Origin: Heterodontus francisci
Lineage: Eukaryota
Length of the DNA stretch: 64,000 bases
NCBI RefSeq assembly: GCF_036365525.1
Contig: NC_090397.1
Span: 56,832,091 to 56,896,090, forward strand
Direction: 5' to 3'
Made by a program: the position numbers and the translations under genes. Numbering within the stretch: position 1 is the stretch's first letter; every line of letters starts with the position of its first letter. The notes beneath the pieces were generated by a model, which did not search any database, was not told where the DNA came from, and worked only from the letters and a program-made list of their open reading frames with translations. This document shows, in pieces, positions 4,735-48,190 of the stretch.

Positions 4735-4971
<237 letters not shown>

Positions 4972-6140: not shown

Positions 6141-6202
6141 GGCAAAGACTTATTGCAGCCTGATGCTCGATAAGTAACCTGTTGAAGCTCTTCTGTCCTC
6201 AG

Positions 6203-6444
6203 CAATACTGACGACTCCGCAGCAGAAGCCGGCCACCACATCCACCCCCAAGAGCTCCTCGCCAGGCATCACCCAGGGACAGACCGTCCTGTCCTACAGT
6301 CCTCAACGCCCGCTCGGCTCCTGCACCAAGTTCAGCCCCAGCTGTATAACAGGATTTAGCCCAACCATGCAGACTCCTTCGCCACCGGGGAGTGGATCCT
6401 TCCCATCCTCTGTGATGTACTCGCCTAGCAGCAGCTTCAATACG
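6203..6444 (+). CDS. TMEM209: TMEM209 coding exon 4 (Ser/Pro-rich; QGQTVLSYSP...KFSPSCITGFSP)
   Basis: Homologous to QGQSVLSYSPSR..PKFTTSCMTGYSP; cctcag acceptor, GTACAT donor; phases 1/0. Confidence 0.93.
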
Positions 6445-6564
6445 GTACATGGGAGTGGGTGGATTCTAACCATTGGCATTGGCAGCAATATTAAACTTTC
6501 ACTGGTATCTCTAACATCCCTGTTATGGGATTGTAACTGTTTTTGTTTCCCCTCCTCTGCTGAA

Positions 6565-11187: not shown

Positions 11188-11525
11188 GTTTAGTTTAGAG
11201 ATACAGCACTGAAACAGGCCCTTCGGCCCACCGAGTCTGTGCCGACCATCAACCACCCATTTATACTAATCCTACACTAGTCCCATATTCCTACCACATC
11301 CCCACTTGTCCCTATATTTCCCTACCACCTACCTATACTAGGGGCAATTTATAATGGCCAATTAACCTATCAACCAGCAAGTCTTTGGCTGTGGGAGGAA
11401 ACCGGAGCGCCCGGAGGAAACCCACGCAGACACAGGGAGAACTTGCAAACTCTACACAGGCAGTACCCAGAATTGAACCCGGGTCGCTGGAGCTGTGAGG
11501 CTGCGATGCTAACCACTGCGCCGCC
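11188..11525 (-). mobile_element. HE1-type V-SINE
   Basis: Highly similar to 59-368. Confidence 0.85.
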
Positions 11526-11526
11526 C

Positions 11527-11803
11527 CGATGCACTACAGCAATGCTCCAAGGCTCCTTAGACAGCACCTTCCAAACCTGCGACCTCTGACAACTAGAAGG
11601 GCAAGGGCAGCAGATACATGGGAACATCACCACCTGCAAGTTCCCCTCCAAGTCTCGCACCATCCTAACTTGGAACTATATTGCCGTTCCTTCACTGTCG
11701 CTGGGTCAAAATCCTGGAACTCCCTTCCTAACAGCACTGTGGGTGTACCTACCTCACACAGACTGCAGCAGTTCAAGAAGACAGCTCATCACCACCCTCT
11801 CAG
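11527..11803 (+). mobile_element. 3' fragment of the LINE family at 30770-33647
   Basis: Aligns to 33296-33570 (ccaaggctccttagacagcaccttccaaac...gctgggtcaaaatcctggaactcccttcct). Confidence 0.85.
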
Positions 11804-13550: not shown

Positions 13551-14226
13551 CATCATCTTTGGCCTCCTTATCTCGAGAGACAATGGATAAGCGCCTGGGG
13601 GTGGTCAGTGGTTTGTGAAGCAGCGCCTGGAGTGGCTATAAAGGCCAATTCTAGAGTGACAGGCTCTTCCACAGGTGCTGCAGAGAAATTTGTTTGTCGG
13701 GGCTGTTACACAGTTGGCTCTCCCCTTGCGCCTCTTGTCTTTTTTCCCGCCAACTACTAAGTCTCTTCGACTCGCCACACTTTAGCCCCGTCTTTATGGC
13801 TGTCCGCCAGCTCTGGCGAACGCTGGCAACTGACTCCCACGACTTGTGATCAATGTCACAGGATTTCATGTCGCGTTTGCAGATGTCTTTAAAGCGGAGA
13901 CGTGGACGGCCGGTGGGTCTGATACCAGTGGCGAGCTCGCTGTACAATGTGTCTTTGGGGATCCTGCCATCTTCCATGCGGCTCACATGGCCAAGCCATC
14001 TCAAGTGCCGCTGACTCGGTAGTGTGTATAAGCTGGGGGTGTTGGCCGCCTCGAGGACTTCTGTGTTAGAGATACGGTCCTGCGCCCTGATGCCAAGTAT
14101 TCTCCTGAGGCAGCGAAGATGGAATGAATTGAGACGTCGCTCTTGGCTGACATACGTCGTCCAGGCCCCGCTGCCATAGAGCAAGGTACTGAGGACACAG
14201 GCCTGATACACTCGGACTTTTGTGTT
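13551..14226 (-). mobile_element. RTE-clade LINE, 5'-truncated 3' end
   Basis: ORF 13651-14211 has YQACVLSTLLYG..W...LNSFHLRCLRRILGI...LRWLGHVSRMEDGRIPKDTLY.EL..GRP, typical of the RTE RT C-terminus. It has a (GAT)n tail and a possible TSD CTGAAT (13545-13550 / 14227-14232). Confidence 0.88.
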
Positions 14227-14610
14227 CTGAATAGAATCAGTGAATTCATATGGAGTCTTTCTTCCCTGAATCCTGCACTCTGAAGCATTACAAGTGGTTC
14301 CTGGTGATGAAAATTAGTTTTTTGTGCAATTGTGTATAGCAATAGAAGAGGGCTACGTGCACAGATAATGGTGGGTTCGCTGTACTATTTTGTTGCCTTT
14401 GGCAGCTTGACCCCCTTTGATCCCAGTTCCCTGCCTTTTCTCCATATCTTGTATATATCTATGCTCGCTTTTCAGCGTTGCACCAATGGCTTTCTGGGGC
14501 AAGTTGTTCCACATTCGATCAACACTGTGCACAAAATCTACAGGATTTGCTTTTTCCTGATTTGGCTCAGACTCTAAGATTGTGTCCTCTTGTTTCTTAT
14601 CTATATGTAG

Positions 14611-19774: not shown

Positions 19775-20790
19775 CCGTCTAATTCCCTTTTGAATGCTTC
19801 AATTGAACCTGCCTCCACCACGTTCTCAGGCAGTGCATTCCAGACCTTAACCACACTCTGTGTGACACAGTTTTTCCTCATGTCACTTTTGCTTCTCATC
19901 AAATACTTTAAATCTGTGCCCTGTCATTCTCGATCCTTTCACGAGTTTCTGTCCATCTACTCTGTCCAGACCCCTCATAATTTTGAATACCTCTATCAAA
20001 TCACCTCTCAGCCTTCTCCAAGGAAAACAGTCTTAACTTTCCCCAATCTATCTGCATAACTGAAATTCCTCATTCTTGGAACCATTCTTGTGAATCTTTT
20101 CTGTACTCTCTCCAATGCCCTCACCTCTTTCCTTAAGTGCGGTGCCCAGAACTCTGGGGGAGGTGGTGGCGTACTGGTAATGTCACTGGACTAGTAACCC
20201 AGAGATTCAGGCTACTGCTCTGAGGACATGGGTACGAATCCCACCGTGGCAGATGGTGAAATTTGAATTCAATTAATCTGGGAATTAAAAAGCTAATCTA
20301 ATGGTGACCCTGAAACCATTGTTGATTGTTGTAAAAATGCATCTGGTTCACTTCTGCCGTCATTCCCTGATCTGGCCTACATGTTAATTCAGACCCACAG
20401 CAATATGGTTGACTCTTTTTTTTTTTATTAAACAAAAGCCCTCTGAAATGGCCTAGCAAGCAATTGGGGATGGGCAATAAATGCTGGCCTAGCCAGGGAC
20501 GCCCATATCCCACAAATGAATAAAAAAAAGAACTGGACGCAATACTCCAGCTGAGGCCAAACTAGTGTCTTATACAAGTTCAACAAAACTTCCTTGCTTT
20601 TGTACTCTATGCCCTTAATACTGTATGCTTTATTAACCACTCTCAACCTGTCCTGCCACCTTCAATGACATATGCACATATACACCCAGGTCCCTCTGCT
20701 CCTGCACCACCTTTAGAATTGTACCCTTTATTTTATATTCTTCCGTGTCCTTCCTACCAAAATCAATCATTTCACATTTCTCTGCATTGT
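19775..20790 (-). mobile_element. CR1 RT 3' fragment, split by the SINE at 20154-20528
   Basis: Minus-strand translation gives GIEYKSKEVLLNLYKTLVWPQLEYCVQF, and the sequence continues across the insertion. Confidence 0.8.
20154..20528 (+). mobile_element. tRNA-derived SINE sharing its 3' tail with the LINE at 30770-33647
   Basis: A box TGGCGTACTGG, B-box-like GGTACGAATCC, tail GGGATGGGCAATAAATGCTGGCCTAGCCAG..ACGCCCA.ATCCCA, then polyA. TSD AGAACT at 20148-20153 / 20529-20534. Confidence 0.8.
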
Positions 20791-20995
20791 GATAATGGCC
20801 AGATATAATCCATTTTAGGTATTGGTTGGGGGGGGATAAATATTGGCCAGGACCCTGGGAAGAACTGCCCTGCTGCTCTTCGAAATTGTGTGATGGGATC
20901 TTTTACATCCAACTGTGCGGACGTTCACGGTCTAAGTTTAATGTCTGACCAAATTAGATTTTATGTTCCACTTAGAATAATCTTTCATTTTGCAG

Positions 20996-21069
20996 GACAG
21001 GAGCAACATGTTCCACATCATCCTGATGTTTTTGTACATAATTAAAATGAAGGAGTCGGGAATGTTGGG
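20996..21069 (+). CDS. TMEM209: TMEM209 coding exon 13 (DRSNMFHIILMFLYIIKMKESGMLG)
   Basis: NMFH..LMFLYIIK.KESGMLG motif; tgcag acceptor, GTACGT donor; phases 0/2. Confidence 0.96.
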
Positions 21070-21714
21070 GTACGTGGTTATTTTCAGACTTTCCTAACTC
21101 TCTGCTGTTTGATTTCTCCTCAAATCATTAGCACATAAAGATTTGTATTTTTGGGGCTGATTTGTTATCTTGCCCATCGCATTCCAAATTTGTACATTCG
21201 CAATCCAGCAAAAAATAAAAATCTCCATCCAGACTTCCTAATTTGCCTATCAGCTCAACTAAAACTTCTGATCTCCCGCTGAAAGGGGAAAGTAAAGAGC
21301 TGTGTATCTGACTGCCTCAGCCCCTGACCCAAGTTCTCTCCAAAGACTGAAGACCAGCTCCCAGCAATTCCACGAGCAATGCTGGGGGAGATGTGCATGA
21401 CAGTGGCCTTGGGATCAGTGCGATTCCACAATGGAAAGTTCCTGTTCTCTTTTTTACCTCCCCCCCCCCCCCCCCCCTCAAACTCGAGGTCTCTGGGTAC
21501 ATCATGTTGATGGGCTGGATATAAAAGCCACATACAAAACTGCATTTCCACATAGTCCAGTGCTCCTTAATACTGAATTTACTAAAGGTTTTCTTAAACC
21601 CAATGAAGATGCTTGTTTCTCAGTACCTCAATGCGTGTGAGTCATTTGCTTGGGACTTAATCCCACAATTTTTCTTACATTTCTTCCTCCTGCAGGCTCT
21701 GATTTTTGTTCAGG

Positions 21715-22155
21715 GTTCAGAATGAAACTGACTAAAAAGGTTAAATTATGAGGGCAGCTTGCATAAACTTGGCTTGTATTCCCTTGAGTATAGAGGGTTG
21801 AGGTGATCTGATCGAGGTGTTTAAAATGATAAAAGGATTACACATGTTAGATACTCAGAAGCTATTACTTCTGATGGCAGAATCCTAAACAAGGGGCATA
21901 ATCTTAAAATTAGAGCTAAACCATTTAGGAGTGAAATCAGGAAGTACTTCTTTACAGAAAGGGTAGTGGAAATCTGAAATTCTCTCAAAAGGCCATGGGA
22001 TGTTGGGAGACAGTTGGAGTTTTCAAGACTGAAATCGGTAGGTTTTGTTAAGTACATCGAGGGATATGGGTAAATGGAGTTTAGGTACAGGTTCGCTATG
22101 ATCTAACAATGTTGGAACAGACCTGAGGGGCTGAATGGCTTCTGTTCCCATGTTC
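21715..22155 (+). mobile_element. Decayed CR1 3' end
   Basis: Degenerate ..GLYSLE.R.LRGDL..RGHNLK..FFTERVV pattern plus tail gaggggctgaatggc. Confidence 0.75.
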
Positions 22156-22513
22156 TCGGGCATAGTGCAATGGGTTTTAGCAGCGCAATCGAGTGGCTAT
22201 TTTGTGTGAGAGCTGGGCAGTATTTGTTTTTGGTAGTCAAATGGAGGGAGTCATCACAGGTAAACCTGAACCTGTCCTCCCCTGACACTAATACATATGG
22301 CCCTGCCAGGTTGGGGGGCTGCTGGGTGGGGATGGCAGGGTGAGGGGGTGGTCATTAGTAATGGGGATTGTTTCACCTCCCTAGCCCAGGCTGTTTTGCA
22401 CTACAGAGTCACCTGCTAAGATCAGCTCATTCAGCATAGGCCAGAGATAAAGCCTGGCATTTTCCTGTTTGTGTGGGACTCTGTACCACACTGAGGTGCA
22501 TTTACCCAGTTCA

Positions 22514-22527
22514 CCACCAGGGGGTGC
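22514..22527 (+). promoter_or_regulatory. Candidate CTCF site
   Basis: CCACCAGGGGGTGC closely matches the CTCF core CCASYAGRKGGCRS. Motif only. Confidence 0.4.
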
Positions 22528-23550
22528 TCTGGTGTCAGTTTAATTGGTTTGGAACCTGTCTTTCCATAAAATACTTCTGTGCAAATCAGATCATTGGAGG
22601 AAGAAGCAAAACTGTCATTCTGTTTAAATAAGTATTCTGTACAGTTAAGTTTGCCCCTTTTGTATAATTTGGCAGCTGCAAAGAGCTGTAATAAGACTGA
22701 TATTCATTTGTGCCCTTTATACCCTCTCTCTCAAAATGTTTCTCAGCCGATTAAGTACTTCACAGATGCAGTGGCCAGTTTGTGCACTGCAAGCTCTCAC
22801 AAACAGCAAATGAGATGAGTGACCAGATACTTTTGGCCTTTGGTAATGGTTCTGGGAGGCATATTGACCAGGATGCTGGCAGACCGCCTGAAAGACAGTA
22901 CCTCCTACAGTGCCGCACTCCCTCAGGACTGTATTGAAGTGTCAGCCTAGCTAAAGTCACAATGTAACTCGGTTGGTTCCCACAGCATAAATTATTGATT
23001 ATCTAACTGGCAGGGGTAGGTGTCAGTGAGTGGATCTTGGGAGTGCCCGATATCTTCAGCTTCCTCTTTTTTTTTTGAATTAATGTTATTGGTGTTTCTG
23101 ATGAACTAATGAAACACATTTTCTGCAGTGGTTTTTGACACTATCCTACAGAAGATGGGGCAGGGTGTCCTCATACATCAGGGGGTCCCTGGGCATTTGC
23201 CCTTATTGGCAGGGGGTGTCCAGCAGTGTGTTAATATTAGGACAAGATTTCCCTGTGCAGTAAAGTTTGAAACCCAATGTGTTCCAGCAACGCTGCTTTT
23301 GAAAGCTGTTTTCAGGAGCCTATGTGCTGCACTATGTCCCTTACCTAAGGGGGCAGCTGTTCCTGAGCCAGCTGGTGGGTAACTGTAACCTGGAGTCAAG
23401 TCTTTCTCCAGATACTGAAAAAAAAAAATTTTTTTAAAGGCCTCCTCACCTCACCATCAAATGGTGGTAAATGTCCTTTGGGAAAAAATTAGAATGCAGT
23501 CTGCATGACCAGTGTATATTTAATCTTAATTATTTATTTTCCTTTTACAG

Positions 23551-23605
23551 GAGGGTGAATCTGGGCTTGTCTGGAGTGAACGTTTTGTGGATTTTTGGAG
23601 ACTAA
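23551..23605 (+). CDS. TMEM209: TMEM209 last coding exon (RVNLGLSGVNVLWIFGD*)
   Basis: Matches the C-terminus RVNLGLSGVNILWIFGE; tacag acceptor; TAA at 23603-23605. The spliced CDS totals 1695 nt, in frame. Confidence 0.97.
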
Positions 23606-24064
23606 GGAACAGTTGCCAGGAGACATAACTCCCCAATATTTGTATTCAATTTGTGCAGAAACTGAACTGATGCAGCATCTGGCCCCTCACCTCACTCGTA
23701 CTCCCCCAGTTCTTTCTCCTTGACCTTTCTCATACTGTCACCTGACCAGGAAGTGCAGGACTCTGGAACAGAAGCTCTGAAGCCAACCTTGTGACTTCTC
23801 CCTGTGACTGTGACGTCACTCTGGTCACTGAGTATCTGGCTGTAGTGCAGCTACTTCAATACTGAGAGGCACCTTTTTTTTTCTTTTTTGAAACAAAAGC
23901 TTTCTCTGTCTCAAAGTTTTGAAGAAAATAACTTCTTTGTACTGACGAATGGAAGTGAGCGTGTACGTTTCATGATCTACAAAGCATTGGGAAAGGCAGC
24001 AAAATGCTGCTGTATTTGCTGTGAAAGAGCAGCATTAATTCCTGTCAGGATTATGATATTTCTG

Positions 24065-24297
24065 AAACAAAAACAAGAAATGTTGGATTCACTCAGCAGG
24101 TCTGGCAGCATCTGTGGAAAGAGAAGCAGAGTTAACGTTTCGGGTCAGTGACCCTTCTTCGGTTCCGAAGAAGGGTCACTGACCCGAAACGTTAACTCTG
24201 CTTCTCTTTCCACAGATGCTGCCAGACCTGCTGAGTGAATCCAGCATTTCTTGTTTTTGTTTCAGATTTCCAGCATCCGCAGTATTTTGCTTTTATT
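24065..24297. mobile_element. Penelope-tail insertion forming a 206-bp palindrome (24061-24266)
   Basis: Arms 24061-24162 and 24165-24266 differ at one position. The right arm matches the Penelope 3' end at 43497-43595. 15-bp TSD ATTATGATATTTCTG at 24050-24064 / 24298-24312. Confidence 0.92.
24161..24197 (+). ncRNA. Minimal type I hammerhead-ribozyme-like motif (mirror copy on the - strand)
   Basis: GGTT-CCGAAGA-A-GGGTC(ACT)GACCC-GAAA-CGT-T^AACT. The core differs from CUGANGA at U4; stem III is reduced to the palindrome ACGT, as in Penelope minimal hammerheads. Confidence 0.6.
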
Positions 24298-27014
24298 ATT
24301 ATGATATTTCTGCTTGGGGAGAAGGATCATTGTCTGGAGCTTCTGAGGGTGGAAGAAAGCGACCAAATTTGTTTTTTTTGTTGCTGATGTTTTGTGGACA
24401 CAGTCACTACTGATGCCTCGAACTGCTGGAATAATGGTGCACATAGTCCTGCTCTCTTCAACCCTCTAATCCTGCCCCTTTTTAAATTAGCAGTATCAAT
24501 GCAAACCAAGTTGAGCCTTTTATTTGAATTTTTAGATTCACTGAGCTGTCTGGTTGTAAGGTACTGCAGGAAGCACAATGATTTGGGCCATTAGGTTGTG
24601 TCTTTGACGGTCTGTCCTATCAGCAATAAGAATTGCCTGAGCATGAAATTAGGAAGTGAAAGGCCTAATGGGTTTCATTCGGAAGGGGAAGGCGGCAGGC
24701 AATGGCAAATAATTAATGTAAAATCACCTCTGATCAATTCAAACTGATGGGACGAGTGGGATTTTCTCTATTGTGCGTGTCCTGTGAATTTAATATGGGC
24801 TGATAGCACAGAACTCGTCCTCCCCTCCCTTCCCAATTCAGGGAAAAGTTGGTTTTGTAAGGAGTGGTCCAGCAGACAATGCTGATATCTGTGCTGGGAC
24901 CCGATGGAGCAAGCTTTATTCGGAAGCCAGCCTAGGAAGTGCTGGACCCCACTGTAGATGGCTGCATTGAAACTGTGATCTATTCTCTACCATGGTATCG
25001 CACCCTCTTCAGTGGTGAATGCACAATTTATTTTCAATACTGCTCTGAGCAAGTTCTGCTGATTCAGAATTAAAACAAAAACATATTCAGATCCAAGGTC
25101 CCAATCAGTTGCTGTAGGTTAGAGATTTGTACATATTTAACTTTTTTAATACTATGCCAAGCCATTGTCTCGAGATTCAATTCAAGGGATGTGCTAAAGC
25201 AAACGGCTCTGTTTAAAGACAGCAGCTTGTACCCTTCTCTCTCTATTTTGAGATCTGCTTCCCTGAATAACAGCCCTCCAGTACCTCACCTGTGACCATT
25301 CTTCAGGTGTGTATGTTGGTGAGCTATTTGACTGTGTGGGGCACTGTAGCAGGACTGCCTAAGTGAGGATCAGAAGCAAGAACCCATGACCTTATTTTAG
25401 CTTTCCTCTTTAGGCTCGTGGGGCTGAGGTCAGCCTTTTCAAGAGTTTGTCTCGAGTTCCCTAAGTAGCTCAGTTTGTTGGTTGACTGTAGCTGAGCTGT
25501 ACAGACCAGGAAGTTTCTTCCCCCTCCCCCTTCCATTCTATTCCCTGTCTCTGCTGACTTTGCCTGGACTGGCAGCACTTGGTTAGGGCCAGGAACCCCC
25601 TACTGGAATTGGGAGCAGGATTTGGACCTACTGCAATTGCTCTCCACTCACCAACACATGCTACCCAGTCTTGTGGGTGAATGGCCACTTGAACAAGTAT
25701 GAGAGAGCAACTGATGTCTGTGGAGCTTACTTCAGGAGTGGGTGCCCTCAGGGAAGCACATTGAATGGCACTTGATCTCATTCAGAGAGGGCACAGGAAT
25801 GGGCCAGTGTGGAATATGGAAAAGGGAAAAGTATCTCAAGTGTGATGGAGCACACTCTTCTGAGATTGGGACTGAGGAATGTCCCTGAGGTTTACACCTA
25901 TCTATGCAGTAGCTGATCGAGAAAAACCTGATGGGGCATCTAATCGAGAGCTTTACTGTACATCTAACTATGTAGTCGCTGAGCCCAGATACCATGATAT
26001 TTGATTTGGTAGCGATAAGCATTTGTCTAAGATTTCTGCCTCTGTGTTTTTATTAATTGAGATGCTAGTGATTACAGTTGGAGGTGTGGGAATGATTTTG
26101 ATTTGTGGGTCACTGCAGGTTTAGAGTTTGGAATTCTGTAATCTGGGATCTATCAATGACCCCACCCTACTCCTGTAACTGTGCAACAAATTTGTAATTT
26201 GTACATTTTCATACCCTCAGTTTCCTAGTTTTTTTTTGCTCATTGATTTCCCCTCTCATCCAGCATTTGATTCAAACCTGTCCTAAACCTTGCACAGCAA
26301 AGGGATATGTTCAGACAGCACTGGACAGAAGAGTAAACAAAAGCCAAACAGTACTGGCTAACAACTGCTCTCCAGCAATCAATGCTGCATTGTTAAACTG
26401 GCATGGGAGAAACCATCAGAGTGCTACTGTGGACGAAGACTGGCAATAGCCCTTCCTGGTTGGCTATGGGGTGCTGGATCTGGAACACCGACATTCCAGA
26501 AAGAGAATACTCTTATCAAAAAGGATTCTGGCCAATTATTTACAAATACAGTGTGGGATGTCCAGCTCTGGTACTTAAAATATAATTAGATCTTGGAACA
26601 TCGCCCTTCTTTGCAGTTCCAGCCCTGGCTCTCTCCCAATCACTGCATTCCAACCTTGCTCTTTAGCTACATTGGGTACAAGAGAAAGAACCTAATAACT
26701 GGATAAGGATGCACAGCCACTTACACAGTACTTCACTACATAATGTTTTGGGGCCATTGAGATGCCATTCTATACCTTAATCTTTGATAGTACAGTTCTG
26801 GGGGAGTAAGGCACCCTCATGTTGTAACCCGTCCACGTGGCTGCTGTTCATGTGCGAATCTTGATTGAGTGTTAGATGTGGACACAGGCTATCCTGATCC
26901 TATTCTCTTGTGAGGATTGCTGGATAATTGCGAACAGGAGATTTGGACGATTTTCCCCTTGGGCTAGCTGCAGCAGTGTCTTTGAACTGCAGGAGGTGAG
27001 AGTTCAATAGGGAT

Positions 27015-28115
27015 AGATTCATAAAATGGTTACAGCACAGAAGGAGGCCATTTGGCGTGTTGAGCCTGTGCTGGCTTTCCGCAATAGCAATTTAGTTAGT
27101 CCTGCAACCCCTGCTCTTTCCCTGTAACCATGTAAATTTTTGTTCCTTCATGTGTTTATCCAATTCCCTTTTGAAAGCCAGGATTGAAACTGCCTCCACC
27201 ACCTTTTTAGGCAGTGCGTTCTAGATTGTAACCACTTGTTGTGTAAAAATGTTTTTCCTCATGTTACCTCTGGTTCTTTTTGCCAGTCACTTCAAATCTG
27301 TGTCCTCTTGTTCTCGACCCTTCTGCCAATGAGAACAGTTTCTCTTTATCTACTCTGTCTAGACCCCTTGTGATTTTGAACACTTCTGTTAAATCTCCTC
27401 TCAACCTCCTCTTCTCTAAGAACAACCCCAATCTTCAATCTATCCATGTAACTGGAGTTCCTCATCCCTGGAACTATTCTCGTAAATTTTTTCTGCACCC
27501 TTTCTAAAACCTTCACATCATTCCTAAAGTGTGGTGCTCAGAATTGACACCATATTCCATTGAGGCTGAATCAGTCTTTTATAAACGATCATCATTTCTT
27601 TGCTTTATAAAGCCCAGGATCTCGTTTGCCTTTTTCATCACTTCCTCAACCTGCCTTGTACCCCCTATATTTTATATTGCTTCTCATTCTTCCTAACAAG
27701 ATATACCACTTCACACTTATTTTATTTATTTCATTTAGAGATACAGCACTGAAACAGGCCCTTCGGCCCACCGAGTCTGTGCCGACCAACAACCACCCAT
27801 TTATACTAACCCTACAGTAATCCCATATTCCCTATCACCTCCCTACACTAGGGACAATTTACAACGGCCAATTTACCTATCAACCTGCAAGTCTTTGGCT
27901 GTGGGAGGAAACTGGAGCAACCGGTGAAAACCCACACGGTCACAGGGAGAACTTGCAAGCTCCGCACAGACAGTACCCAGAATTGAACCTGGGTCCCTGG
28001 AGCTGTGAGGCTGCGGTGCTAACCACTGCCGCTTCTCTAAATTAAATTTCATTTGCCATTTGTCTGTTCATTCCACCAACCTGTCTGTGTCCTCTTGAGG
28101 TTTATTGCTATCCTC
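27015..28115 (-). mobile_element. CR1 3' fragment containing an HE1-type SINE (about 27730-28032)
   Basis: CR1 tail acagcacagaaggaggccatt..., body aattcccttttgaaagcc...aaatctgtgtcctcttgttctcg; the embedded SINE matches 59-368. Confidence 0.8.
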
Positions 28116-28585
28116 TGTTGGAAGGTAGTTGAATTCTGGAGTTTGCTTAATTACTTTTTGGGATTATGGTATCTATATAGAAATTCCCCTCCAGTGGTCG
28201 GCACAGAATGACAATGTACAGTGTCTGGACAATTTTCAATGGCTTGAATCATTTAATTTTAGTCTATTTCCACCAGTGCTGCACATCACCCAATGGCTGA
28301 AACATGGTTTTAAAAAAAACAGTCGCTTGTTATGATGTCCTGACATCGCAAAACACTTTACAATCAAAGGACTACTTTTGGAGTGTAGTCACTATCGTCA
28401 TGGTAGCTATTTTGTACACGGCATGGTCCAGTGGGCACCAAATCAACCATCAATCTGTTTTATATCTGGCTGAGTAGATATTTAACATCTTAACCAAAAG
28501 ATAATACCTGTTATTCTTTGGCATTCCCTCGCTACTGTATCAAAGTATACTAACGTTTTTTAGGCTGCATTTGCTGACGATGCAA

Positions 28586-28600
28586 CCACTAGGTGGTGCT
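28586..28600 (+). promoter_or_regulatory. Candidate CTCF site
   Basis: CCACTAGGTGGTGCT matches the CTCF core and lies between the two genes. Motif only. Confidence 0.45.
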
Positions 28601-29052
28601 GTACTGGCACATGTAGTCTGCGAAGGTAGACAGCTGCCAGGACTAAAGATGGTGCTGCTCGATAATCACAATGGCAAAGTAAACCTATGGCAGCACGCAA
28701 TGGAAATCGAAAGTACAGCACCTCTGACACTGCTGCACAATTCTAATTGTTTTCAGTGCCATTCCGCTCTGGCAGCTCGCTCCCTGCCCGCTGCCCCCGC
28801 TTCCTTCCTGCACTGCGCTGCCCAAAGAAACAAGGCGATGTAGGAGCATGTGGCAGAGAGGAGGGAGGGGGCGTGGCCTCGAGCTAGCGACTGGAGGGAT
28901 GGAGGAGAGAGCGGCGGGGTAGAGGATGGAGCAGGGGGGGCAGTGGAGCTGACCAGGTGCATTGCATGATGATGTACAGAAGCCCGTCTGCGCATGTGCG
29001 CATCTTGGCGCAGCCTGATGATGTCAACGGCCAGCTGTGTTGTCAGGAATCA

Positions 29053-29345
29053 CTTTTTTTAATCATTCATGGGATGTGGGCGTCGCTAGCCAGGCCAGCA
29101 TTTATTGCCCATCCCTAATTGCCCTTGAGAAGGTGGTGGTGAGCTGCCTTCTTGAACTGCTGCAGTCCATGTCGGGTAGGTATACCCACAGTGCTGTTAG
29201 GAAGAGAGTTCCAGGATTTTGACCCAGTGACAGTGAAGGAACGGCGATATAGTTCCAGATCTGGATGGTGTGTGACTTGGAGGGCAACTTGCAGGTGGTG
29301 TTCCCATGCATTTGCGGCCCTTGTCCTTCTAGTTGGTAGAGGATC
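29053..29345 (-). mobile_element. 3' end of the LINE family at 30770-33647
   Basis: Reverse complement of 33355-33630, including the tail and polyA. Confidence 0.85.
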
Positions 29346-30228
29346 GCGGTTGTGTTTCAGTCTAGTAGGGTTTGAGCCCACAAGCTACTGCCAGTGGGGC
29401 AGGAGTGCCACTAACAGCCAAGTTGGCACATCCTCAAGAGAGAGTGAGAAAATGGGGATAAGGGGATCTTAGCTGGAAAGAATAAAACTACCAGAATGAG
29501 GCTGGGAACCATCTGTACTAGAAATGGCCATTAAAAGACAAACCTGTGGGTAACAAATGACCACTCATTAAAGGTGCACAGCCAGTGTGAGGTGGCTATA
29601 GGGAAAGCCAGTAAGGCAACTGTGCCCCAATTAAATCCATTTGCACCATAACACAAAACAACAATATAAGGTTCAGGTAAATTTGAACTTGAGAGCAAAG
29701 CACCTGGTTTTGATCCCACCACATGGTAAAGGAAATCAAAAATATCTAGAGCTCGTTTTTTACAAGGAGACCTCTCTTGAGTGGTTTACAGGGCAGTCAA
29801 TCGTGAATGGCCACCAAGCAAGGGTGGAGAACGGAAAGGTGTCAACAGAAGGCAAAAACACGGTTAAAAAGGAAGCTCTTCAAGAGGTTTCTGAAGGCGG
29901 GGAGAAATCTAGGAAGGCAGAGCTGCTAAGGAGAGATTTCTGGGGGAGGGGCAAGTAAGACCTGCTGATGGGAGAGTGGGGACCAAGATGTGGGCTATTG
30001 GAGGGATATAGGGCTGCAGGAGATTGAGATTAGGAAGGGGTAAGGCCCTAGGGGAATATGGAAGTATGGACAGGAACCTTAAAGTCGACATTCTGAGGTT
30101 TATTTTGGTGATCTAATTGAAGTGTTTAAAACAATTTGATAACTGCAAGGATGCTATTGTCTCTGCTGGCAGCGAGTTCTTGTGATCTAGAATGCATGGC
30201 CTGAAAGGGCAATGGAAGCAGATTCAAT

Positions 30229-33200
30229 GGCACAGATTTTGTGATGGTAATGTCAGCATTTGCCATCATTATTCCACAAAACTTACAGCAACTTCAGGAG
30301 TCTGCACGTGCACAGAATAATGCAGAAATGAAGAAGTAGCTGTCAGTGATTCTACGCTTCTCCAGAGGGAGCACAGTTGAGGTCTCTTTCCCCTCTCCCA
30401 GACTGTAATCATTGGGAAATCTAGGAATTGAGGACTTCCACTCTTAGGCAGATAGTCTCACTGTAAAGACTCATGAAAAAGTTAACCCTTGTTGAATGAG
30501 GTATTATTTTTTAATGGTGTACTAACATTGAATTACTGCTAAACATCCTCAGTGGCCCTAATAAGATTTTATATTTGTGGAATGTCAAATTTACCCATTA
30601 TGATAAATTCCACATACTTTAAATAATTTTCTGGAACCGTTTGTTTATATTTTAGCTTATATCGTAACCTAATCATAGATTTCATTAACTGAAAATTTAT
30701 TTTAAAATTTAAGGATAAGGCACTTTTATGGTTATGCTGCCTATCTGAATACTTAAATGTGATTTAGCTGCTTACCCTGCCTTGCAAACCCAGCCCTGTC
30801 GACCCTGCAAAGTCCTCCTTACTAACATCTGGGGACTTGTGCCACAGTTGGGAGAGCTGTCCCACAGATTAGTCAAGCAACAGCCTGACATCGTGATACT
30901 CATGGAATCATACCTTACAGACAATGTCCCAGACACTGCCATCACTAAACCTAGGTATGTCCTGTCCCACTGGCAGGACAGACCCAGCAGAGGTGGCAGC
31001 ACAGTGGTGTACAGGAGGGAGGGAGTTGCCCTGGGAGTCCTGAACATCGACTCCGGACCCCATGAAGTCTCATGGCATCAGGTCAAACATGGGCAAAGAG
31101 ACCTCCCACTGATTACCACCTACCGCCCTCCTTCAGCTGATGAGTCAGTACTCCTCCATGTTGAACACCACTTGGAGGAAGCACTGAGGGTAGCAAGGGC
31201 GCAGAATGTACTCTTGGTGGGGGATTTCAATGTCCATCACCAAGAGTGGCTCGGTAGCACCACTGCTGGCCGAGTCCTAAAGGACATAGCTGCTAGACTG
31301 GGTCTGCGGCAGGTGGTGAGGGAATCAACAAGAGGGAAAAACATACTTGACCTAGTCCTCACCAATCTGCCTGCCGCAGATGCATCTGTCCATGACAGTA
31401 TTGGTAGGAGTGACCACCGCACAGTCCTTGTGGAGATGAAGTCCCGCCTTCACATTGAGGATACCGTCCATCGTGTTGTGTGGCACTGTCACCGTGCTAA
31501 ATGGGATAGATTTTGAACAGATCTAGCAATGCAAAACTGGGCATCCATGAGGTGCTGTGGGTCATCAGCAGGAGCAGAATTGTACTCAACCACAATCTGT
31601 AACCTCATGGCCTGGCGTATTCCCCCACGCTACCAATACCATCAAGCCAGGAGACCAACCTTGGTTCAATGAAGTGTCCAGGAGGGCATGCCAGAAGCAG
31701 CACCAGGCCTACCTCAAAATGAGGTGTCAACCTGGTGAAGCTACAACAGAGGACTACTTGCGTGCCAAAATGCGTAAGTAGCATGCAATAGAGAGAGCTA
31801 AGTGATCCCAGAACCAATGGGTCAGATCTAAGTTCTGCAGTCCTGCCACATCCAGCCGTGAATGGTGGTGGACAATTAAACAACTAATTGGAGGAGGAGG
31901 CTCCATAAATATCCCCATCCTCAATGATGGGGGAGCCCAGCACATCAGTGCGAAAGATAAGGCAGAAGCATTTGCAACAATCTTCAGCCAGGAGTGCTGA
32001 ATTGATGATCCATCTCAACCTCCTCCTGAAGTCTCCAGCATCACAGATGCCAGACTTCAGCCAATTCGATTCACTCCTGTGATATCAAGAAACGGCTGAA
32101 GGCACTGATACTGCAAAGGCTATGGCCCTGACGATATTCCGGCAATAGTACTGAAGACCTGTGCTTCAGAACTTGCTGCACCCCTAGCCAAGCTGTTCAT
32201 CTACCCAGCAATGTGGAAAATTGCCTAGGTATGTCCTGTGCACAAAAAGCAGGACAAATCCAACCCAGCCAATTATCACCCCATCAGTCTACTCTCAATC
32301 TCCAGTAAAGTGATGGAAGGTGCCATCAACAGTGCCATCAAGCAGCACTTGCTTAGCAATGACCTGCTCACTGATGCTCAGTTTGGGTTCCGCCAGGGCC
32401 ACTCAGCTCCTGACCTCATCACAGCCTCATCAAACATGGACAAAAGAGCTAAACTCGAGAGGTGGGGTGAGAGTGACTGCCCTTGACATCAAGGCAGCAT
32501 TTGACCGTGTATGGCATCAAGTAGCCCTCGCAAAATTGGAGTCAATGGGATTCAGGGGGGAAACTCTCTGCTGGTTAGAGTCATACCTAGCGCAAAGGAA
32601 GATGGTTGTGGTTGTTGGCGGTCAATCATCTCAGCTCCAGGACATTACTGCAGGAGTTCCTCAGGGTAGTGTCCTAGGCACAACCATCTTCAGCTGCTTC
32701 ATCAATGACCTTCCTTCAATCATAAGGTCAGAAGTGGGGATGTTTGCTGATGATTGCACAATGTTCAGCACCATTCGCGACTCCTCAGATACTGAAGCAG
32801 TCCGTGTAGAAATGCAGCAAGACCTGGACAATATCCAGGCTTGGGCTGATAGGTGGCAAGTAACATTCGCACCACACAAGTACCAGGCAATGACCATCTC
32901 CAACAAGAGAGAATATAACCATCTCCCCTTGACATTCAATGGCATTACCATCGCTGAATCCCCCACTATCAACGTCCTAGGGGCTACCATTGACCAGAAA
33001 CTGAACTGTAGTAGCCATATAAATACCATGGCTACAACAGCAGGTCAGAGGCTTGGAATCCTGCGGCGAGTAACTCATCTCCTGACTCCCCAAAGCCTGT
33101 CCACCATCTTTAAGGCACGGGTCAAGAGTGTGATGGAATACTCTCCACTTGCCTGGATGGGTGCAGCTCCAACAACACTCAAGAAGCTCGACACCATCCA

Positions 33201-33721
33201 GGACAAAGCAGCCCACTTGATTGGCACCCCATCCACAAACATTCACTCCCTCCACCACTGACGCACAGTGGCAGCAGTGTGTACCATCTACAAAAGATGC
33301 ACTGCAGCAACACACCAAGGCTCCTTAGACAGCACCTTCCAAACCCGCGACCTCTACCAACTGGAAGGACAAGGGCAGCAAATGCATGGGAACACCACCA
33401 CCTGCAAATTCCCCTCCAAGCCACACACCATCCTGATTTGCAACTATATCACCGTTCCTTCACTGTAGCTGGGTCAAAATCCTGGAACTCCCTTCCTCAT
33501 GCACCATGGGTGTACCTATCTCACATGGACTGCAGCGGTTCAAGAAGGCAGCTCACCACCACCTTCTCAAGGGCAAGTAGGGATGGGCAATAAATGCTGG
33601 CCTAGCCAGCGACGCCCACATCCCATGAATTTTTTGAATTAAAAAAAATCTATGTGGGCAGCATTCTTCAAGGTCAGTAGCAAGTGCAATTGCTTCACGA
33701 CTGACCTGGAAAATCTGGGTC
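30229..33721. mobile_element. Non-autonomous DNA transposon (PIF/Harbinger-like?) inserted in a CR1 fragment and itself interrupted by a LINE
   Basis: Imperfect terminal inverted repeats (TIRs) GGCACAGATTTT (30229-30240) / AAAATCTGGGTC (33710-33721), with AAT on both sides. Removing it restores the CR1 sequence gaagcagattcAATactaactttcaaaagggaattgg. Confidence 0.55.
30770..33647 (+). mobile_element. LINE (CR1/L2 supergroup) with APE endonuclease and RT, mildly decayed
   Basis: Endonuclease motifs TNIWGL, ESYL, YRPP, VGDFN.HH, LDL, SDH (30782-31516); RT motifs DIKAAFDRVWH, GVPQGSVLG, FADD (32320-33261). It has stops and frameshifts and ends in a 3' tail with polyA. Confidence 0.92.
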
Positions 33722-33981: not shown

Positions 33982-36900
33982 TAATAAGATCATAAGAACT
34001 AGGAGCAGGAGTAGGCCGTCCGGCCCCTCGAGCCTGCTCCGCCATTCAATAAGATCATGGCTGATCTTTTCGTGGACTCAGATCCACTTACCCGCGCTCT
34101 CACCGTATCCCTTAATTCCTTTATTGTTCAAAAAGATATCTACCTTAGCTTTAAAAACGTTTACTGAAGAAGCGTCAACTACTTCACTGGGCAAGGAATT
34201 CCATAGATTAACAACCCTCTGGGTGAAGAAGTTCCTTCTTAATTCAGTCTTAAATCTGCTCTCTCTAATCTTGAGGCTATGCCCTCTTGTCCTAGCTTCA
34301 CCTGCCAGTGGAAACATCCTCTCTACTTGTATCTTATCTATTCCCTTCATAATTTTATATGTTTCTATAAGATCCCCCCTCAATCTTCTGAATTCCAATG
34401 AATATAATCCCAATCTACTCAGTCTCTCCTCATAAGCCAACCCCCTCAACTCCGGAATCAACCTAGTGAACCTCCTCTGCACCCTCTCCAGTGCCAGTAC
34501 ATCCTTTCTCAAGTAAGGAGACCAAAACTGCAGACAGTACTCCAGGTGCGGCCTCACCAGTACCTCATACAGCTGCAACATAACCTCTCTGCTTTTAAAC
34601 TCAATCCCTTTAGCAATGAAGGACAAAATTCCATTTGCCTTCCTAATTACTTGCTGTACCTGCAGACCAACCTTCTGCGATTCATGCACAAGGACACCTA
34701 GGTCCCTCTGCATAGCAGCATGCTGCAACATTTTACCATTCAAGTAATAATCCTTTTTACTGTTACTCCTACCGAAATGAATGACTTCACATTTATTAAC
34801 ATTGTATTCCATCTGCCAGACCTTTGCCCACTCACTCAATGTATCTATGTTCCTCTGCAAAGTTTCACAGTCATCTGCACACTTTGCTCTGCCACTCATC
34901 TTAGTGTCATCTGCAAACTTTGACACCCTACACGTGGTCCCCAACTCCAAATCGTCTATATAAATTGTAAATAATTGCGGTCCCAACACCGATCCCTGAG
35001 GCACACCACTAGTGACTGATTGCCAACCAGAATAGCACTCATTTATCCCCACTCTCTGCTTCCTGTTTGTTAGTCAACCAATCCTCTATCCATGCTAATA
35101 CTTTCCCCCTAACACCATGCATCCTTATCTTATGCAGCAGCCTCTTGTGCGGCACCTTGTCGAAGGCCTTTTAGAAATCTAAGTACACCACATCCACTGG
35201 GTCCCCATTGTCCACCTTGCTCGTAATGTCATCATAGAATTCCAAAAGATTTGTCAAGCATGACCTGCCCTTCATGAACCCATGCTGCGTCTGCCCAACG
35301 GGACAATTTCTATCGAGATGCCCTGCTATTTCTTCCTTGATAATAGACTCAAGCATCTTCCTCACTACAGAGGTTAAGCTAATTCCCCATCTTTTGTCTA
35401 CCTCCCTTTTTAAACAGTGGCGTCACATCTACTGTTTTCCAATCTGCTGGGACTACCCCAGAGTCCAGCGAATTTTGGAAAATTACTGCCAGTGCACCTG
35501 CTATTTCTCCCGCCATCTCTTTTAGTACCCTGGGATGCATTCCATCAGGGCCAGGAGACTTATCAATCCTTAGCTCCATTAGCTTGCCCAACACTACCTC
35601 TTCTGTAATAATGATTGTTTCCAGGTCCTCACCTACGTTCGTCTCTTTGTCAATTACTGGCATGTTATTAATGTCCTCCACTGTGAAGACCGATACAAAA
35701 TACCTGTTCAATGCCTCGGCCATTTCATCATATCCCATAACTAAATTCCCCTTCTCATCCTCTAAAGGACCAACGTTTACTTTAGCCACTCTTTTTCGTT
35801 TTATATATTTATAGAAACTTTTGCTATCTGTCTTTATATTCTGTGCTAGTTTTTTCTCATGTTCTATCTTACTTTTCTTTATAGCTCTTTTTGTGGCTTT
35901 CTGTTGACCTTTAAAATTTTCCCAATCTTCTAGTTTCATGCTGTTTTTGGCCACTTTGTATGCGTTCTCTTTCAATTTGATAGCCTCCCTTATTTCCTTA
36001 GACACTCATGGCAGATTACCCCTTTTCTTCCAGTCCTTCCTTTTCACTGAATATACTTTTGCTGAGCACTTTGAAAAATTGCTTTGAAAGTCCTCCACTG
36101 CTCGTCAACTGTCCCACCACAAAATCTTTGTTTCCAGCCTACTTTAGCCAAGTCCTCCCTCATTCTATTGTAGTCCCCCTTGTTCAAGCGCAGGACCTTG
36201 GTATTGGATTTTATCTTCACACTCTCCATCTGTATTCTAAATTCAACCATACTGTGATCACTCCTTCCAAGAGGATCCCTAACTATGAGGTCATTAATTA
36301 TTCCTGTCTCATTACACAGGACTAGATCTAGGATAGCTTGCTCCCTCGTCGGTTCCAATACATACTGTTCAAGAAAACTATCACGGATACACTCAACGAA
36401 CTCCTCCTCAAGGCTACCGTGACTGAGCTGGTTCGACCAATCTACATGTAGATTAAAATCCCCCATGATAACTGCCGTACCATTTTTACAGGGATTAGTT
36501 ATTTCTTTGTTTATTGCCTGCCCCAATGTGATGTTATTATTTGGTGGCCTATAGACTACGCCTATCAATGACTTTTTCTTCTTAGAGTTTCTAATTTCCA
36601 CCCAAACGGATTCAACCTCATTCTCCATAGAACCTATATCATCTCTCAGCACCGCCCTGATGTTGTCCTTGAATATCAGAGTTACACCACCTCCCTTACC
36701 TACCTGTCTGTCCTTCCGAATAGTCTGGTACCCCTGGATATTTAACTCCCAGACGGTCGCCCACCTCCTCCTGGAATGTGTTTTTGCAAAGCAGGTGTGG
36801 AAAGAGATGCAGTGGTTTTTGTCGAGGTTCATCCCAAGCAGCTCGGTAACACAGGAGTCTGTGCTCTACGGGCTGTTCCCAGGGACGCACACCGAGAGAA

Positions 36901-39069: not shown

Positions 39070-39420
39070 GTTTAGATTTTAGATTAGATTAGAGATACAG
39101 CACTGAAACAGGCCCTTCGGCCCACCGAGTCTGTGCTGACCATCAACCACCCATTTATACTAATCCTACACTAATCCCATATTCCTACCACATCCCCACC
39201 TGTCCCTATATTTCCCTACCACCTACCTATACTAGGGGCAATTTATAATGGCCAATTTACCTATCAACCTGCAAGTCTTTTGGCTTGTGGGAGGAAACCG
39301 GAGCACCTGGAGGAAACCCACGCAGACACAGGGAGAACTTGCAAACTCCACACAGGCAGTACCCAGAATCGAACCCGGGTCCCTGGAGCTGTGAGGCTGT
39401 GGTGCTAACCACTGTGCTGC
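39070..39420 (-). mobile_element. HE1-type V-SINE with (TTAGA)n tail
   Basis: Highly similar to 59-368 and 11188-11525. Confidence 0.85.
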
Positions 39421-39959
39421 CCCAATACCAATAGGCTAATGAAACTGGGACAGACTGAGCAGTCTTGGCCTGTTTCATTCTGGCATTTCAATGCTTTTGG
39501 AGACAAAATGTGGATTTTTTTTTTGGTGGGGGAGGGTGGTTGTAAATACAATCATTCATTTTTTCTGGTTGATTTATCGGTTGTTGCTGTGTATGAATGC
39601 TGTTTGAGTCAATACTTTGTAATATGCACAATATGCAAATATGCTGCTGGTTTTTGGCTGATTTCAGTTGCTTCTATCACTACCACTTCATCCTGTGTTG
39701 CATAACTTGAATGCTTTTTTGCAGCCATGATGCAAGTTTAGGAGTTCTGAATATGTAAATGAACTCCCCGCCACCACTCTTGGGCAGATGTACCCTGAGT
39801 GCTTTGCTTACCTGCTGTTTGATTCCACTGAAATCTTAGTGATATTACTGCATTAATATCTGTTGCACTTTGATCCCTCCCTCCATATTAATCATAGTGT
39901 TGTTGATTGACAGTGTTTGGGCTGCATGTCTTGTGGAGTAGAAGTCACCCCTGTCGAAA

Positions 39960-40370: not shown

Positions 40371-41652
40371 CGGCGGTGTACATTGGCTCCTGGTCCACCA
40401 ACTCTTCAAATTTAAGTTTTCATTCCGATGTTCAAATCCCTCCATCCTTTGCACCCTCCCTTGCTTTGTAACCTTCTATAATCCTTTGACAATTCTGCAT
40501 TTTTTCCAGTTCTGACCTCTTGCAAATCCCTGGCTTCCTTCACCCCACTATTGGCGGCCATGCCTTCAACTGTCTAGGTCCTGAGGTCTGGAATTACCTT
40601 CCTCGTTTGAAGACACTCCTCAAAACTGACTACTTTGATCAACCTTATCTAATGTGTCCTCCTTCAGCTTGGTGTGAATTTTTTCTGATTATGCTCCCCT
40701 GAAGTACCTTGAAATGTTTTGCTACATTAAGGCATTATATGAATACAAATTGAGGAATGAGGTTCAGCTGTTGTCAGCCTGTTTATCTTGATATGAAGGG
40801 GCCCCATCACTGTCTCTGAAATAACTTTACAATTACAATTTGGGGAGAACTATTTTTGTTTATAAATTGACTTGTGTTAATGCATACTGTGAATAGGAGC
40901 AGCAAGTAGTGTCGCTAGTTGTAGTTTGGGAGATTTATTTGCTTAAATTTAATGTTTTATGCTTCTGCTTGAGAAATCTTTAAAATTCTTCCTGTAATAT
41001 ACAGGTGGAATAGAATCTATAAAGTTGTATCCAGGTGCCTAATACACAAGTACCTGTATTTTAAAAAGGTCTGAAAAGTAGTATGAGAAAGTGGCTAAGT
41101 GTTGCACTGGACTATATTCAGAACAAAATAGAATAAATTCACAGTGCAGTCACTTCAGTACAAAGGGTTTTCAAAAAAATAGATAAATTGGGAAGTAGAG
41201 TTTAGGTGGAACCAATTTTTAAATTAAAAAGCAGAAAGAGGTTTTTGAAGTCTTGTAGGTGAATGAGTTGGAAATTTTTTTTCATGAGGTTGTGGAATCT
41301 GGCAGGAGAGAGAATGAAAGAATGATGTGTTCAATGATAGAAGAAATGAGATTGTGTGGAGAACAGACAATTCTGTTGACAATAATATTTTCTTCTGTCT
41401 TGTCTGGGAGTTCACGTGGTGTAGAAAATGCCTGAATTTTATAATTTGGGTTTTAGAGGAATGCTCCCAACTATGAGTCAGATAGAGCTGGCGTGTGACT
41501 CACTGGAGGGGGTATGTAAGTCTAAGGTCAAATTCTATACCTTGATCTTTGGTAGCATAATGGATGAATGTTTTTAATGATGCTTTGGAGAAAATTTATC
41601 TGTCTATATGGTGCCCAAATCAGGTGGTTTTGATGCAACGTACAACCCAAAT

Positions 41653-43595: not shown

Positions 43596-43875
43596 AACCC
43601 AAATAGCCTATTCCTTTATTCAAAGTCACTTATTTCAGATTGTTTGATACAATATTTTTGACACTAAATTTCTAGTTTGATGCTTATAATTCCAAGTTCT
43701 TCGATGTTTAAAAAAAATTTGCATGCAAGTACAATTTTGAATTGCCAGGTGTCGACTCTGCATTTCTCGACCTCTTCAATGTGCAACAGTGCTGCCTCAA
43801 ACTTGCATGGGCAACCCCGTTGCTGCTGGGGTATTTGGTCCTATTTTCCAAAAGACTGCAAGCTACCTGAAAGTT

Positions 43876-47849: not shown

Positions 47850-48190
47850 CTTGGCTTTTCATGTTTGTACTTTGGGACAGAACTGTTCGTTATTCTGTCA
47901 TTAACACACTCTCTGGATTAATGCTTTGTCTTTCACCACACTATTAGCACTCCCTTTGCCTCATGACATCTTTGTCATTTAATCTCTCCTGCCCTCTACC
48001 TATCCCACACCTTAGCTTTTGTTCTATTCCTTTCTCTCTTTTCCCCCCCCCCCACCCCCGCTTCATTTGCTTAAAACTTATTACATTTCCAACCTTTACC
48101 GGTTCTGATGAAAGGTCACAGACCTGAAACATAAACTCCTCCTCTCTCTCCTCAGATGCTGCCAGACCTGCTGAGTATTTTCAGCACTTT
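47850..48190 (+). mobile_element. Penelope 3' tail fragment with hammerhead motif (48101-48137)
   Basis: Similar to 43270-43595; contains GGTT-CTGATGA-A-AGGTC(ACA)GACCT-GAAA-CATA-AACT. Confidence 0.75.

Follow-up and report, generated by a model that had tools for sequence, protein, structure and literature searches.

Penelope-like elements (PLEs) that encode an endonuclease (EN+ PLEs) are known to leave complex insertions. An inverted, 5'-truncated copy often adjoins the 5' end of the element, and a tail of 30-40 bp is often found on one end only (PMC8557442). Other described insertions combine an inverted pseudo-long terminal repeat (pLTR), a 31-bp tail and target-site duplications (TSDs) of 8-10 bp, with palindromes at the junctions that were read as signs of self-priming (PMC3846280). 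In vitro, the PLE protein of an anole cuts at ATT, extends both strands and uses two reverse transcriptase (RT) start sites that bound the tail (PMC11167929). In this report, we describe a small PLE-derived hairpin in the 3' untranslated region (UTR) of the gene TMEM209, at positions 24050-24312 of a 64,000-nucleotide stretch of Heterodontus francisci DNA (contig NC_090397.1, positions 56,832,091 to 56,896,090; hereafter, the window).

The combination of an inverted pLTR, a one-sided tail, a TSD and a palindromic junction is the PLE insertion pattern already described (PMC3846280, PMC8557442). Compared with the complex EN+ PLE insertions presented in these sources (PMC3846280; PMC8557442, Fig. 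2) and with the inverted termini of Drosophila virilis Penelope (PMC2377424), the locus shares the head-to-head, 5'-truncated inverted copy; the tail on one end (31 nucleotides here, 31 bp in rotifer Pen2a, within the 30-40-bp range); and the TSD, the junction palindrome, the hammerhead in the pLTR and the AT-rich target. Its parent encodes RT with a C-terminal GIY-YIG domain, and the TSD sequence exists as a single copy in an empty site. Unlike the examples given in those sources, the insert is only 233 bp long, has no open reading frame (ORF), consists almost entirely of inverted repeat and lies in a host 3' UTR; its TSD is 15 bp, compared with 8-10 bp in the rotifer examples.

We assign a probability of about 0.8 to the following reading. 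The locus is a recent PLE stump of the Neptune or Nematis type, a pair of pLTR ends placed head-to-head, with a tail on one side and a TSD of 15 bp. It is transcribed within the TMEM209 3' UTR and is predicted to form a 102-bp duplex, for which A-to-I editing is likely, and it is probably a passenger without function. Independent sequence came from the contigs of four runs among 20 listed: X1 (DNA), X5 and X6 (same species as the window), and X9 (a related species). X5, X6 and X9 are treated as spliced RNA on the basis of exon-bounded cover and long unaligned remainders, and none of them is recorded as RNA. The parts of the insertion are as follows.

24050-24064, + strand: left TSD, 15 bp, beginning with ATT; its last 4 nucleotides are also the outer end of the left arm (microhomology). 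Repeat search; single copy in the related species.
24061-24162, - strand: antisense, 5'-truncated pLTR end without a tail, carrying the private change T24083 and a hammerhead core without helix I. Repeat comparison and descriptor scan; X5 and X6 contigs enter it and end at 24113, which is 24083 + 30.
24159-24168, no strand: palindrome centre, a 10-mer around the spacer TT. Sequence and fold computation.
24161-24197, + strand: minimal type I hammerhead variant. Descriptor scan; features compared with those in PMC4209133.
24163-24266, + strand: sense, 5'-truncated pLTR end (right arm plus spacer). Repeat comparison.
24267-24297, + strand: PLE tail, 31 nucleotides, on the right end only. Arm comparison and exit points of family contigs.
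24298-24312, + strand: right TSD, 15 bp. Repeat search.

An earlier examination of the window from its letters alone (the original prediction) had described two 102-bp inverted arms, at 24061-24162 and 24165-24266, around a 2-nucleotide spacer, with one difference between them and a perfect 15-bp TSD outside. All these elements were recovered exactly. The spacer is TT (24163-24164), and the single mismatch, T24083 opposite G24244, corresponds to a G-U pair in the + transcript. The 15-mer is the sole flanking direct repeat of at least 8 nucleotides. Among 600 random placements in the window, only two reached at least 11 nucleotides; the sole 15 was the locus itself, and the next best was 11. 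The left arm shares 4 nucleotides (TCTG) with the left TSD, so the insert proper runs from 24065 to 24297. The right copy bears 31 extra nucleotides that the left copy lacks. The + strand RNA of the hairpin is predicted to fold with -213 kcal/mol (z = -29), and none of 200 shuffled sequences was equally stable. At the centre, the 10-mer is self-complementary over 4+4 bp around TT, with a computed energy of -0.1 kcal/mol as a DNA hairpin and -8.7 kcal/mol as an intermolecular duplex. The TSD, the one-sided tail, the end microhomology, the centre palindrome and the empty site can all be read within 263 bp, which makes the locus a clean example of a PLE stump insertion.

The arms had also been matched to a Penelope "tail" at 43497-43595. 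The match itself is good, because 93 of 96 nucleotides of the right arm are identical to 43500-43595, but the arms represent the pLTR end and not the tail. The matching region ends a longer element that encodes RT and GIY-YIG, in agreement with the Penelope origin proposed at first.

41653-43595, + strand: longer 5'-truncated PLE copy with RT, a CX4CxxC linker, a GIY-YIG ORF, a frameshift near 42920 and then a pLTR; no tail and no inverted partner. Homologue search, tblastn and descriptor scan.

This long copy has a TSD of its own (9 bp, 41644-41652 and 43596-43604), and it stands outside the insert, as a relative of the element from which the insert came. Because it shares three of the four letters to the left of the spacer, the exact breakpoint at the palindrome centre is ambiguous by 1-4 nucleotides. 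A search with its ORF found 957 relatives among 5207 candidates, with the labels RVT_1, GIY-YIG and PF26215 among the 120 listed. One homologue aligns by tblastn over 41655-43102 in two frames, and the copy is therefore frameshifted. At residue 362, ahead of the GIY-YIG motif, the ORF has a C-x4-C-x2-C linker, and the same linker is present in 101 of the 105 GIY-YIG-bearing homologues among those listed. A Pfam scan of three ORFs from the window gave no family at E<=0.001; the identity came from the homologue searches. A CX2-5CxxC linker between RT and endonuclease is given as a mark of the Neptune and Nematis clades (PMC8557442), and judged by this motif the parent would be a PLE of the Neptune/Nematis type. 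Neptune is the likelier of the two, given that Neptune and Poseidon are the PLE groups reported from vertebrates (10.64898/2026.07.22.740005).

Head-to-head joints are made in large numbers by this very abundant family, so the TMEM209 locus is not special. At 90% identity or more, 50,771 X1 contigs match the 4-kb stretch, with depth concentrated on the element, and each RNA run contributes 4,777-6,460; summed contig depth is, however, not a copy number. Family contigs of X1 exit the window at 24294 (525 contigs), 24297 (391) and 24299 (166), and hundreds leave at the tail end into dissimilar flanks. Among the 15 family joints listed (184 more exist), 13 lead from the antisense arm to the centre or the sense arm, with offsets of -80 to +55 nucleotides, and five of these recur in at least two runs. 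A 26-nucleotide family pattern had no match among metagenome contigs.

Two other repeat classes were considered and rejected. Non-LTR retrozymes are likewise non-coding, pLTR-derived and hammerhead-bearing, and the few Xenopus copies that overlap exons are reported to tend toward 3' UTRs (10.64898/2026.07.22.740005). However, as that source describes them, they consist of head-to-tail tandem units with a complete hammerhead in consecutive units, whereas the insert is a single head-to-head pair; no tandem array was found in 20000-30000. A palindromic family with a fixed consensus, like that of a miniature inverted-repeat transposable element, is contradicted by the offsets of the 13 listed joints, which have many centres, and by the tail, which makes the ends asymmetric. 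A literature search, whose coverage left out most subscription journals, returned no paper on PLE hairpins in shark UTRs.

TMEM209 had been named as the host gene, with the insertion starting about 455 nucleotides after the stop codon and probably in the 3' UTR. A search with the exon at 6202-6444 matched five of 140 candidate proteins, all of them chondrichthyan TMEM209 (67-80% identity). The best match gave 14 colinear tblastn blocks over 2552-23602, followed by the stop codon, and the insertion begins 455 nucleotides past it. The host is thus confirmed, as is the distance.

23551-23605, + strand: last coding exon of TMEM209, with stop codon TAA at 23603-23605. By tblastn, 17/17 identical to the C-terminus of protein P0001; acceptor AG before 23551; RNA contigs begin at 23550.
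23606-26019, + strand: TMEM209 3' UTR, with a length of about 2.4 kb or more. Last positions of RNA contigs: 26019 (X5), 25977 (X6) and 26090 (X9, related species).

No depth is seen in the intron bins 23034-23435 of X5 and X6. In X5, X6 and X9 alike, the long contigs start at the exon acceptor at 23550, and 1.7-2.0 kb of each record lies on the acceptor side, beyond the analysed stretch. The RNA contigs extend 1665-1778 nucleotides beyond the right TSD, so TMEM209 transcripts do not stop before 24060 but include the insertion. The absence of AATAAA or ATTAAA between the stop codon and 25069 was correctly noted, but transcription does not stop there: the contigs reach 25977-26090, which places the hairpin within the UTR, and they run past the ATTAAA at 25069, a site at which the related species has an altered letter. 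Neither AATAAA nor ATTAAA occurs in 25300-26700. Contigs cannot reveal RNA ends, and those at 25977-26090 do not place the polyA site.

Recency had been proposed as well, and it is borne out by the related species. An X9 contig joins 24056 to 24308 with three letters between, so that the 248 nucleotides of the insert plus one TSD copy are absent and the target is present once. As the two species differ at 50 of 2233 aligned nucleotides (2.2%), the aligned contigs indicate an insertion younger than their split. In the window species, X5 and X6 contigs enter the antisense arm from the left flank, run 49 nucleotides into it, and stop at 24113, the end of the last 31-mer that holds T24083; this end point suggests that the T24083 mismatch is real. 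Contigs of both runs also leave the sense tail into the right flank from 24274. Because the runs enter and leave in opposite orientations of the element, both outer junctions and the inversion between them are confirmed.

The DNA run differs. An X1 contig aligns up to 24064 and continues with 19 letters that do not fit the arm. Should these letters belong to the right flank, the contig would extend to 24331; with the following contig starting at 24302, the two would have exactly 30 nucleotides in common, as do the next two X1 contigs. Judging from these overlaps, the DNA sample of the window species probably holds an empty allele too; the rival explanation is library slippage across the hairpin.

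Abundant hyper-editing is reported for the elephant shark (200,171 sites) and heavy editing of Penelope for a lizard (more than 40,000 sites), and palindromic repeats, such as the palindromic Harbinger repeats of Xenopus, are prime editing targets in the frog (PMC5625713). By analogy with these precedents, editing of the hairpin would be unsurprising, and the difference counts of the contigs make it fairly likely. The left RNA contigs have 5 (X5) and 11 (X6) letters that differ from the window, of which only that at 23738 is listed, leaving 4 and 10 unlisted. For the right RNA contigs, whose start is in the unpaired tail, the counts are 4 and 5, with every difference listed and resembling a single-nucleotide polymorphism (SNP). 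Only one unlisted letter is present in the left X1 contig, and one of 11 in the hairpin-free X9 contig. There are five A>G places in X6, compared with two in X5 and two in the DNA run. The kinds of unlisted change that exceed the threshold in X6 are only A>G (5), A>T (2) and G>A (2), and the A>T pair, present in all four runs, is probably family variation. The extra RNA differences probably sit under the pile of family matches at 24061-24082, the A-rich base of the stem, where 11 of 13 adenosines lack a 5' G and no 31-mer is without an anchor in the flank or in T24083. The unequal counts in X5 and X6 fit editing better than alleles. Word shares were uninformative: the RNA-like runs gave 0.83-0.85, compared with 0.854 expected with edits and 0.878 without, values too close at 205 words.

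Like the Xenopus Harbinger palindromes, lizard Penelope and inverted pairs of Alu elements in 3' UTRs, the hairpin is a self-folding, short-loop repeat within a transcript. It differs from these ADAR substrates as they are presented in PMC5625713, since its palindrome was built at insertion and is not part of a consensus, and its editing is deduced rather than read directly.

Several points weigh against the overall reading. Among the pieces listed (68,308 more exist), none bridges the exact centre without differences, and for that reason the 2-nucleotide spacer is taken from the assembly alone. The sides of the family joints are short (18-30 nucleotides), so some joints could be library fold-backs. 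The positions and letters of the unlisted RNA differences are not displayed, which leaves editing as a deduction by elimination, and the extra A>G places could be family-wide and not local. The RNA contigs show only the filled allele, and at 23738, 24560, 25883, 25885 and 25886 they carry the letters of the related species, unlike the window and the X1 DNA contigs; a neutral passenger alone does not explain these two observations. Finally, the anole RT starts in vitro at sites non-homologous to the cut DNA, which fits priming by microhomology less well (PMC11167929).

X5 and X6 are filed under the same sample label as the X1 DNA. The RNA may come from other donors than the DNA; otherwise, a single animal is heterozygous, the window is a mosaic of haplotypes, and the hairpin allele dominates the RNA. 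The change C25101T, seen in X6 alone, leans toward different donors.

Long duplexes are handled by Staufen and Dicer, palindromic DNA can extrude a cruciform, as the original prediction suggested may happen here, and inverted Alu pairs in 3' UTRs affect their mRNAs. We infer that the insertion is probably a functionless passenger. The alternative that survives best is that the hairpin allele acts by way of ADAR, Staufen or nuclear retention to alter TMEM209 mRNA output, at the level of stability, localisation or translation, as a young cis-regulatory variant that is possibly segregating. The hairpin is indeed inside the spliced UTR and likely edited, and a heterozygote that expresses mainly the hairpin allele would account for the filled-only RNA with the letters of the related species and for a DNA contig apparently on the empty path. 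However, RNA from other animals under one sample label would give the same pattern, with which C25101T agrees; contigs carry no allele ratios; and the related species expresses a UTR of equal length without the insert, so that the gene does not need it. We regard a cis-regulatory role as unlikely. A broader version is that PLE stumps of cartilaginous fish are ready-made, Alu-like ADAR hairpins for which no second copy is needed, and that this one segregates as filled and empty alleles, is hyper-edited at its A-rich base and tilts expression to the hairpin allele; we consider it similarly doubtful.

The original prediction also raised the possibility that the stem is a Dicer substrate from which endogenous small interfering RNAs (siRNAs) act in trans against the Penelope family. 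Its 102-bp, near-perfect duplex is 97% identical to a related copy, lies in a transcribed gene and represents the pLTR end in both strands. However, the contribution of one locus would be small beside many other head-to-head joints and thousands of family contigs per RNA run; editing would loosen the stem; and all microRNA matches in Rfam are below the gathering score and reflect pairing alone. Taken together, these points make an siRNA source very improbable.

The remaining functional proposal concerns the hammerhead. In PLEs, minimal hammerheads are reported to show no cleavage as single motifs and weak cleavage as dimers (PMC4209133). The U4C change "considerably decreases activity in vitro", but it is tolerated in a viroid (PMC3088659). 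A hammerhead had been predicted on each strand of the insert, and a core was found on both by the descriptor scan, at +24165 and -24162, but it is non-canonical: CCGAAGA (U4C) replaces CUGANGA on either strand, together with a 5-bp helix II, GAAA, ACGU and U17. Helix I is possible only in the + copy (4 bp, one of them G-U) and has 0 bp in the - copy. G10.1-C11.1 in helix II, the extra nucleotide (an A) after A9 and the palindromic 15.2-16.2 positions are as expected. The Rfam search gave no hammerhead family, and none of its 21 matches reached the gathering score. The long copy has two changes in its core (CCAAAGA), and an older + copy (47883-48189) has a canonical CUGAUGA core at 48105 with a 4-bp helix I.

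The motif shares with the minimal type I hammerheads of PLEs a potential short helix I, the extra nucleotide after A9, G10.1-C11.1 and the palindromic stub of helix III, and opposite-strand pairs 100-700 bp apart are already known from Schistosoma (PMC4209133). Unlike the hammerheads described in that source, it has a U4C core, no tandem partner on the same strand, a position buried in a 102-bp duplex and a - copy without helix I.

The suggestion that the mRNA carries a ribozyme locked by its own antisense arm is correct in that the motif is buried. In the hairpin context, helices I and II have a predicted pair probability of 0.0, and forcing the hammerhead fold costs 52.7 kcal/mol. The analysis did not bear out a meaningful lock or a working hammerhead on each strand; the locked state is probably a by-product of insertion geometry. 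For the lock to be a switch, editing or a helicase would have to open the stem, so that the ribozyme, either by itself or with family transcripts in trans, could cut TMEM209 mRNA. The + copy does retain helix II, GAAA and the palindromic ACGU, together with a possible helix I; in a 61-nucleotide fragment without the left arm, helix II has a probability above 0.98; and the anole PLE hammerhead is protein-assisted (PMC11167929). Yet helix I stays at or below 0.05 even in that fragment, the core has U4C and a U at 17, the descriptor scan found no same-strand partner hammerhead within the UTR, and editing would also strike core adenosines. The downstream UTR is moreover well represented in RNA contigs, though contigs cannot show ends. 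We find such a switch scarcely credible.

An assembly or library fold-back artefact is largely refuted. In its favour, the DNA runs contain 0.96 of the words, near the 0.945 expected if junction and private words were missing, the X1 contig seems to follow the empty allele, and the listed pieces include none with an exact bridge over the centre. Against it, each of two RNA runs passes, independently of the other, from the left flank into the antisense arm and from the sense tail into the right flank, so that the inversion must lie between, and the perfect TSD, the one-sided tail and the empty site in the relative are biological signatures.

As to the origin of the insertion, the TSD begins with ATT, the initial letters also of the target of the anole Poseidon element PAc, and the right copy ends at the distal RT start site. 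In right-arm coordinates, the end of the left copy falls at 24262-24266, 2-6 nucleotides from that of the long copy (24260). The two RT starts of PAc that bound its tail, together with extension from both nicked strands, would yield the asymmetry seen here (PMC11167929). PAc belongs to a different clade, whereas the parent has a Neptune/Nematis CX2-5CxxC linker, and PAc initiation is reported to be non-homologous to the cut DNA, compared with the 4-nucleotide microhomology at the left end of the insert.

We infer the following route as a whole. The GIY-YIG endonuclease would make nicks staggered by 15 bp at an AT-rich site starting with ATT. One nicked strand would prime reverse transcription at the tail end, and the other, via the 4-nucleotide microhomology (TCTG/CAGA), would prime at the nearer start, about 31-35 nucleotides inside. 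The two short cDNAs would then be joined through the self-complementary 10-mer just 5' of the hammerhead. The corresponding 10-mer of the long copy is imperfect (energy, -1.2), so a source variant with a G would be needed; a G at that place is seen in the older copy, at 48095-48110. Such twin priming, in which both nicked strands prime and the cDNAs are joined through the 10-mer, has in our estimate roughly an even chance and is favoured over fold-back of a single cDNA as the origin of the inversion, which we consider possible but tentative. Upon transcription, the antisense arm would emerge first and pair with the emerging sense arm, so that the already weak hammerhead would stay unfolded, and ADAR may then act on the stem as on other repeat-derived duplexes. 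The locus fits the two-start-site, both-strand chemistry that the anole element shows in vitro, a chemistry whose later steps are unvalidated.

As it stands, the insertion has little import, since it is one of very many PLE stumps with a described architecture. If it is both polymorphic and edited, it would offer an allele-matched test of the tolerance for a new long 3' UTR duplex and would point to PLE palindromes as a main endogenous source of double-stranded RNA in sharks. A segregating, edited hairpin would amount to a natural two-allele experiment on a new 100-bp duplex in a vertebrate mRNA.

Some additional observations concern the same elements and gene. In the PLE family, a pyrimidine tract plus CAG at 43475-43499 resembles a splice acceptor and ends exactly at the 5' strand of helix I, which corresponds to the palindrome centre; in D. 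virilis Penelope, an intron ends at helix I (PMC4209133). We set the acceptor reading aside, as an equally good score is reached by 300 AGs among the 4276 in the window (top 7%) and the older copy has CGG. Also rejected was a reading frame open from ATG 24216 through the tail (27 codons), with which no fetched homologue begins. Two pLTR copies of an older subfamily, at 47883-48189 (+) and 49056-49147 (-), face each other tail-to-tail, 865 nucleotides apart. In the TMEM209 UTR, a 7-nucleotide stretch at 24796-24802 is present twice in the related species, with 24 additional letters between the copies, either a small insertion with duplication in that species or a microhomology deletion in the window species. 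The TMEM209-like protein P0003 ends by reading on into the last intron (21070-21091), where it agrees with the translated intron of the window, apparently an annotation without the last exon.

Elsewhere in the window, the ORFs at 30749-33261, 34078-36865 and 13651-14313, all on the - strand, resemble what we take to be endonuclease and RT fragments of other families of long interspersed nuclear elements. A short interspersed repeat family has five copies, at 57-362, 11190-11527, 27730-28037, 39084-39423 and 59276-59612, some of which are up to 97% alike.

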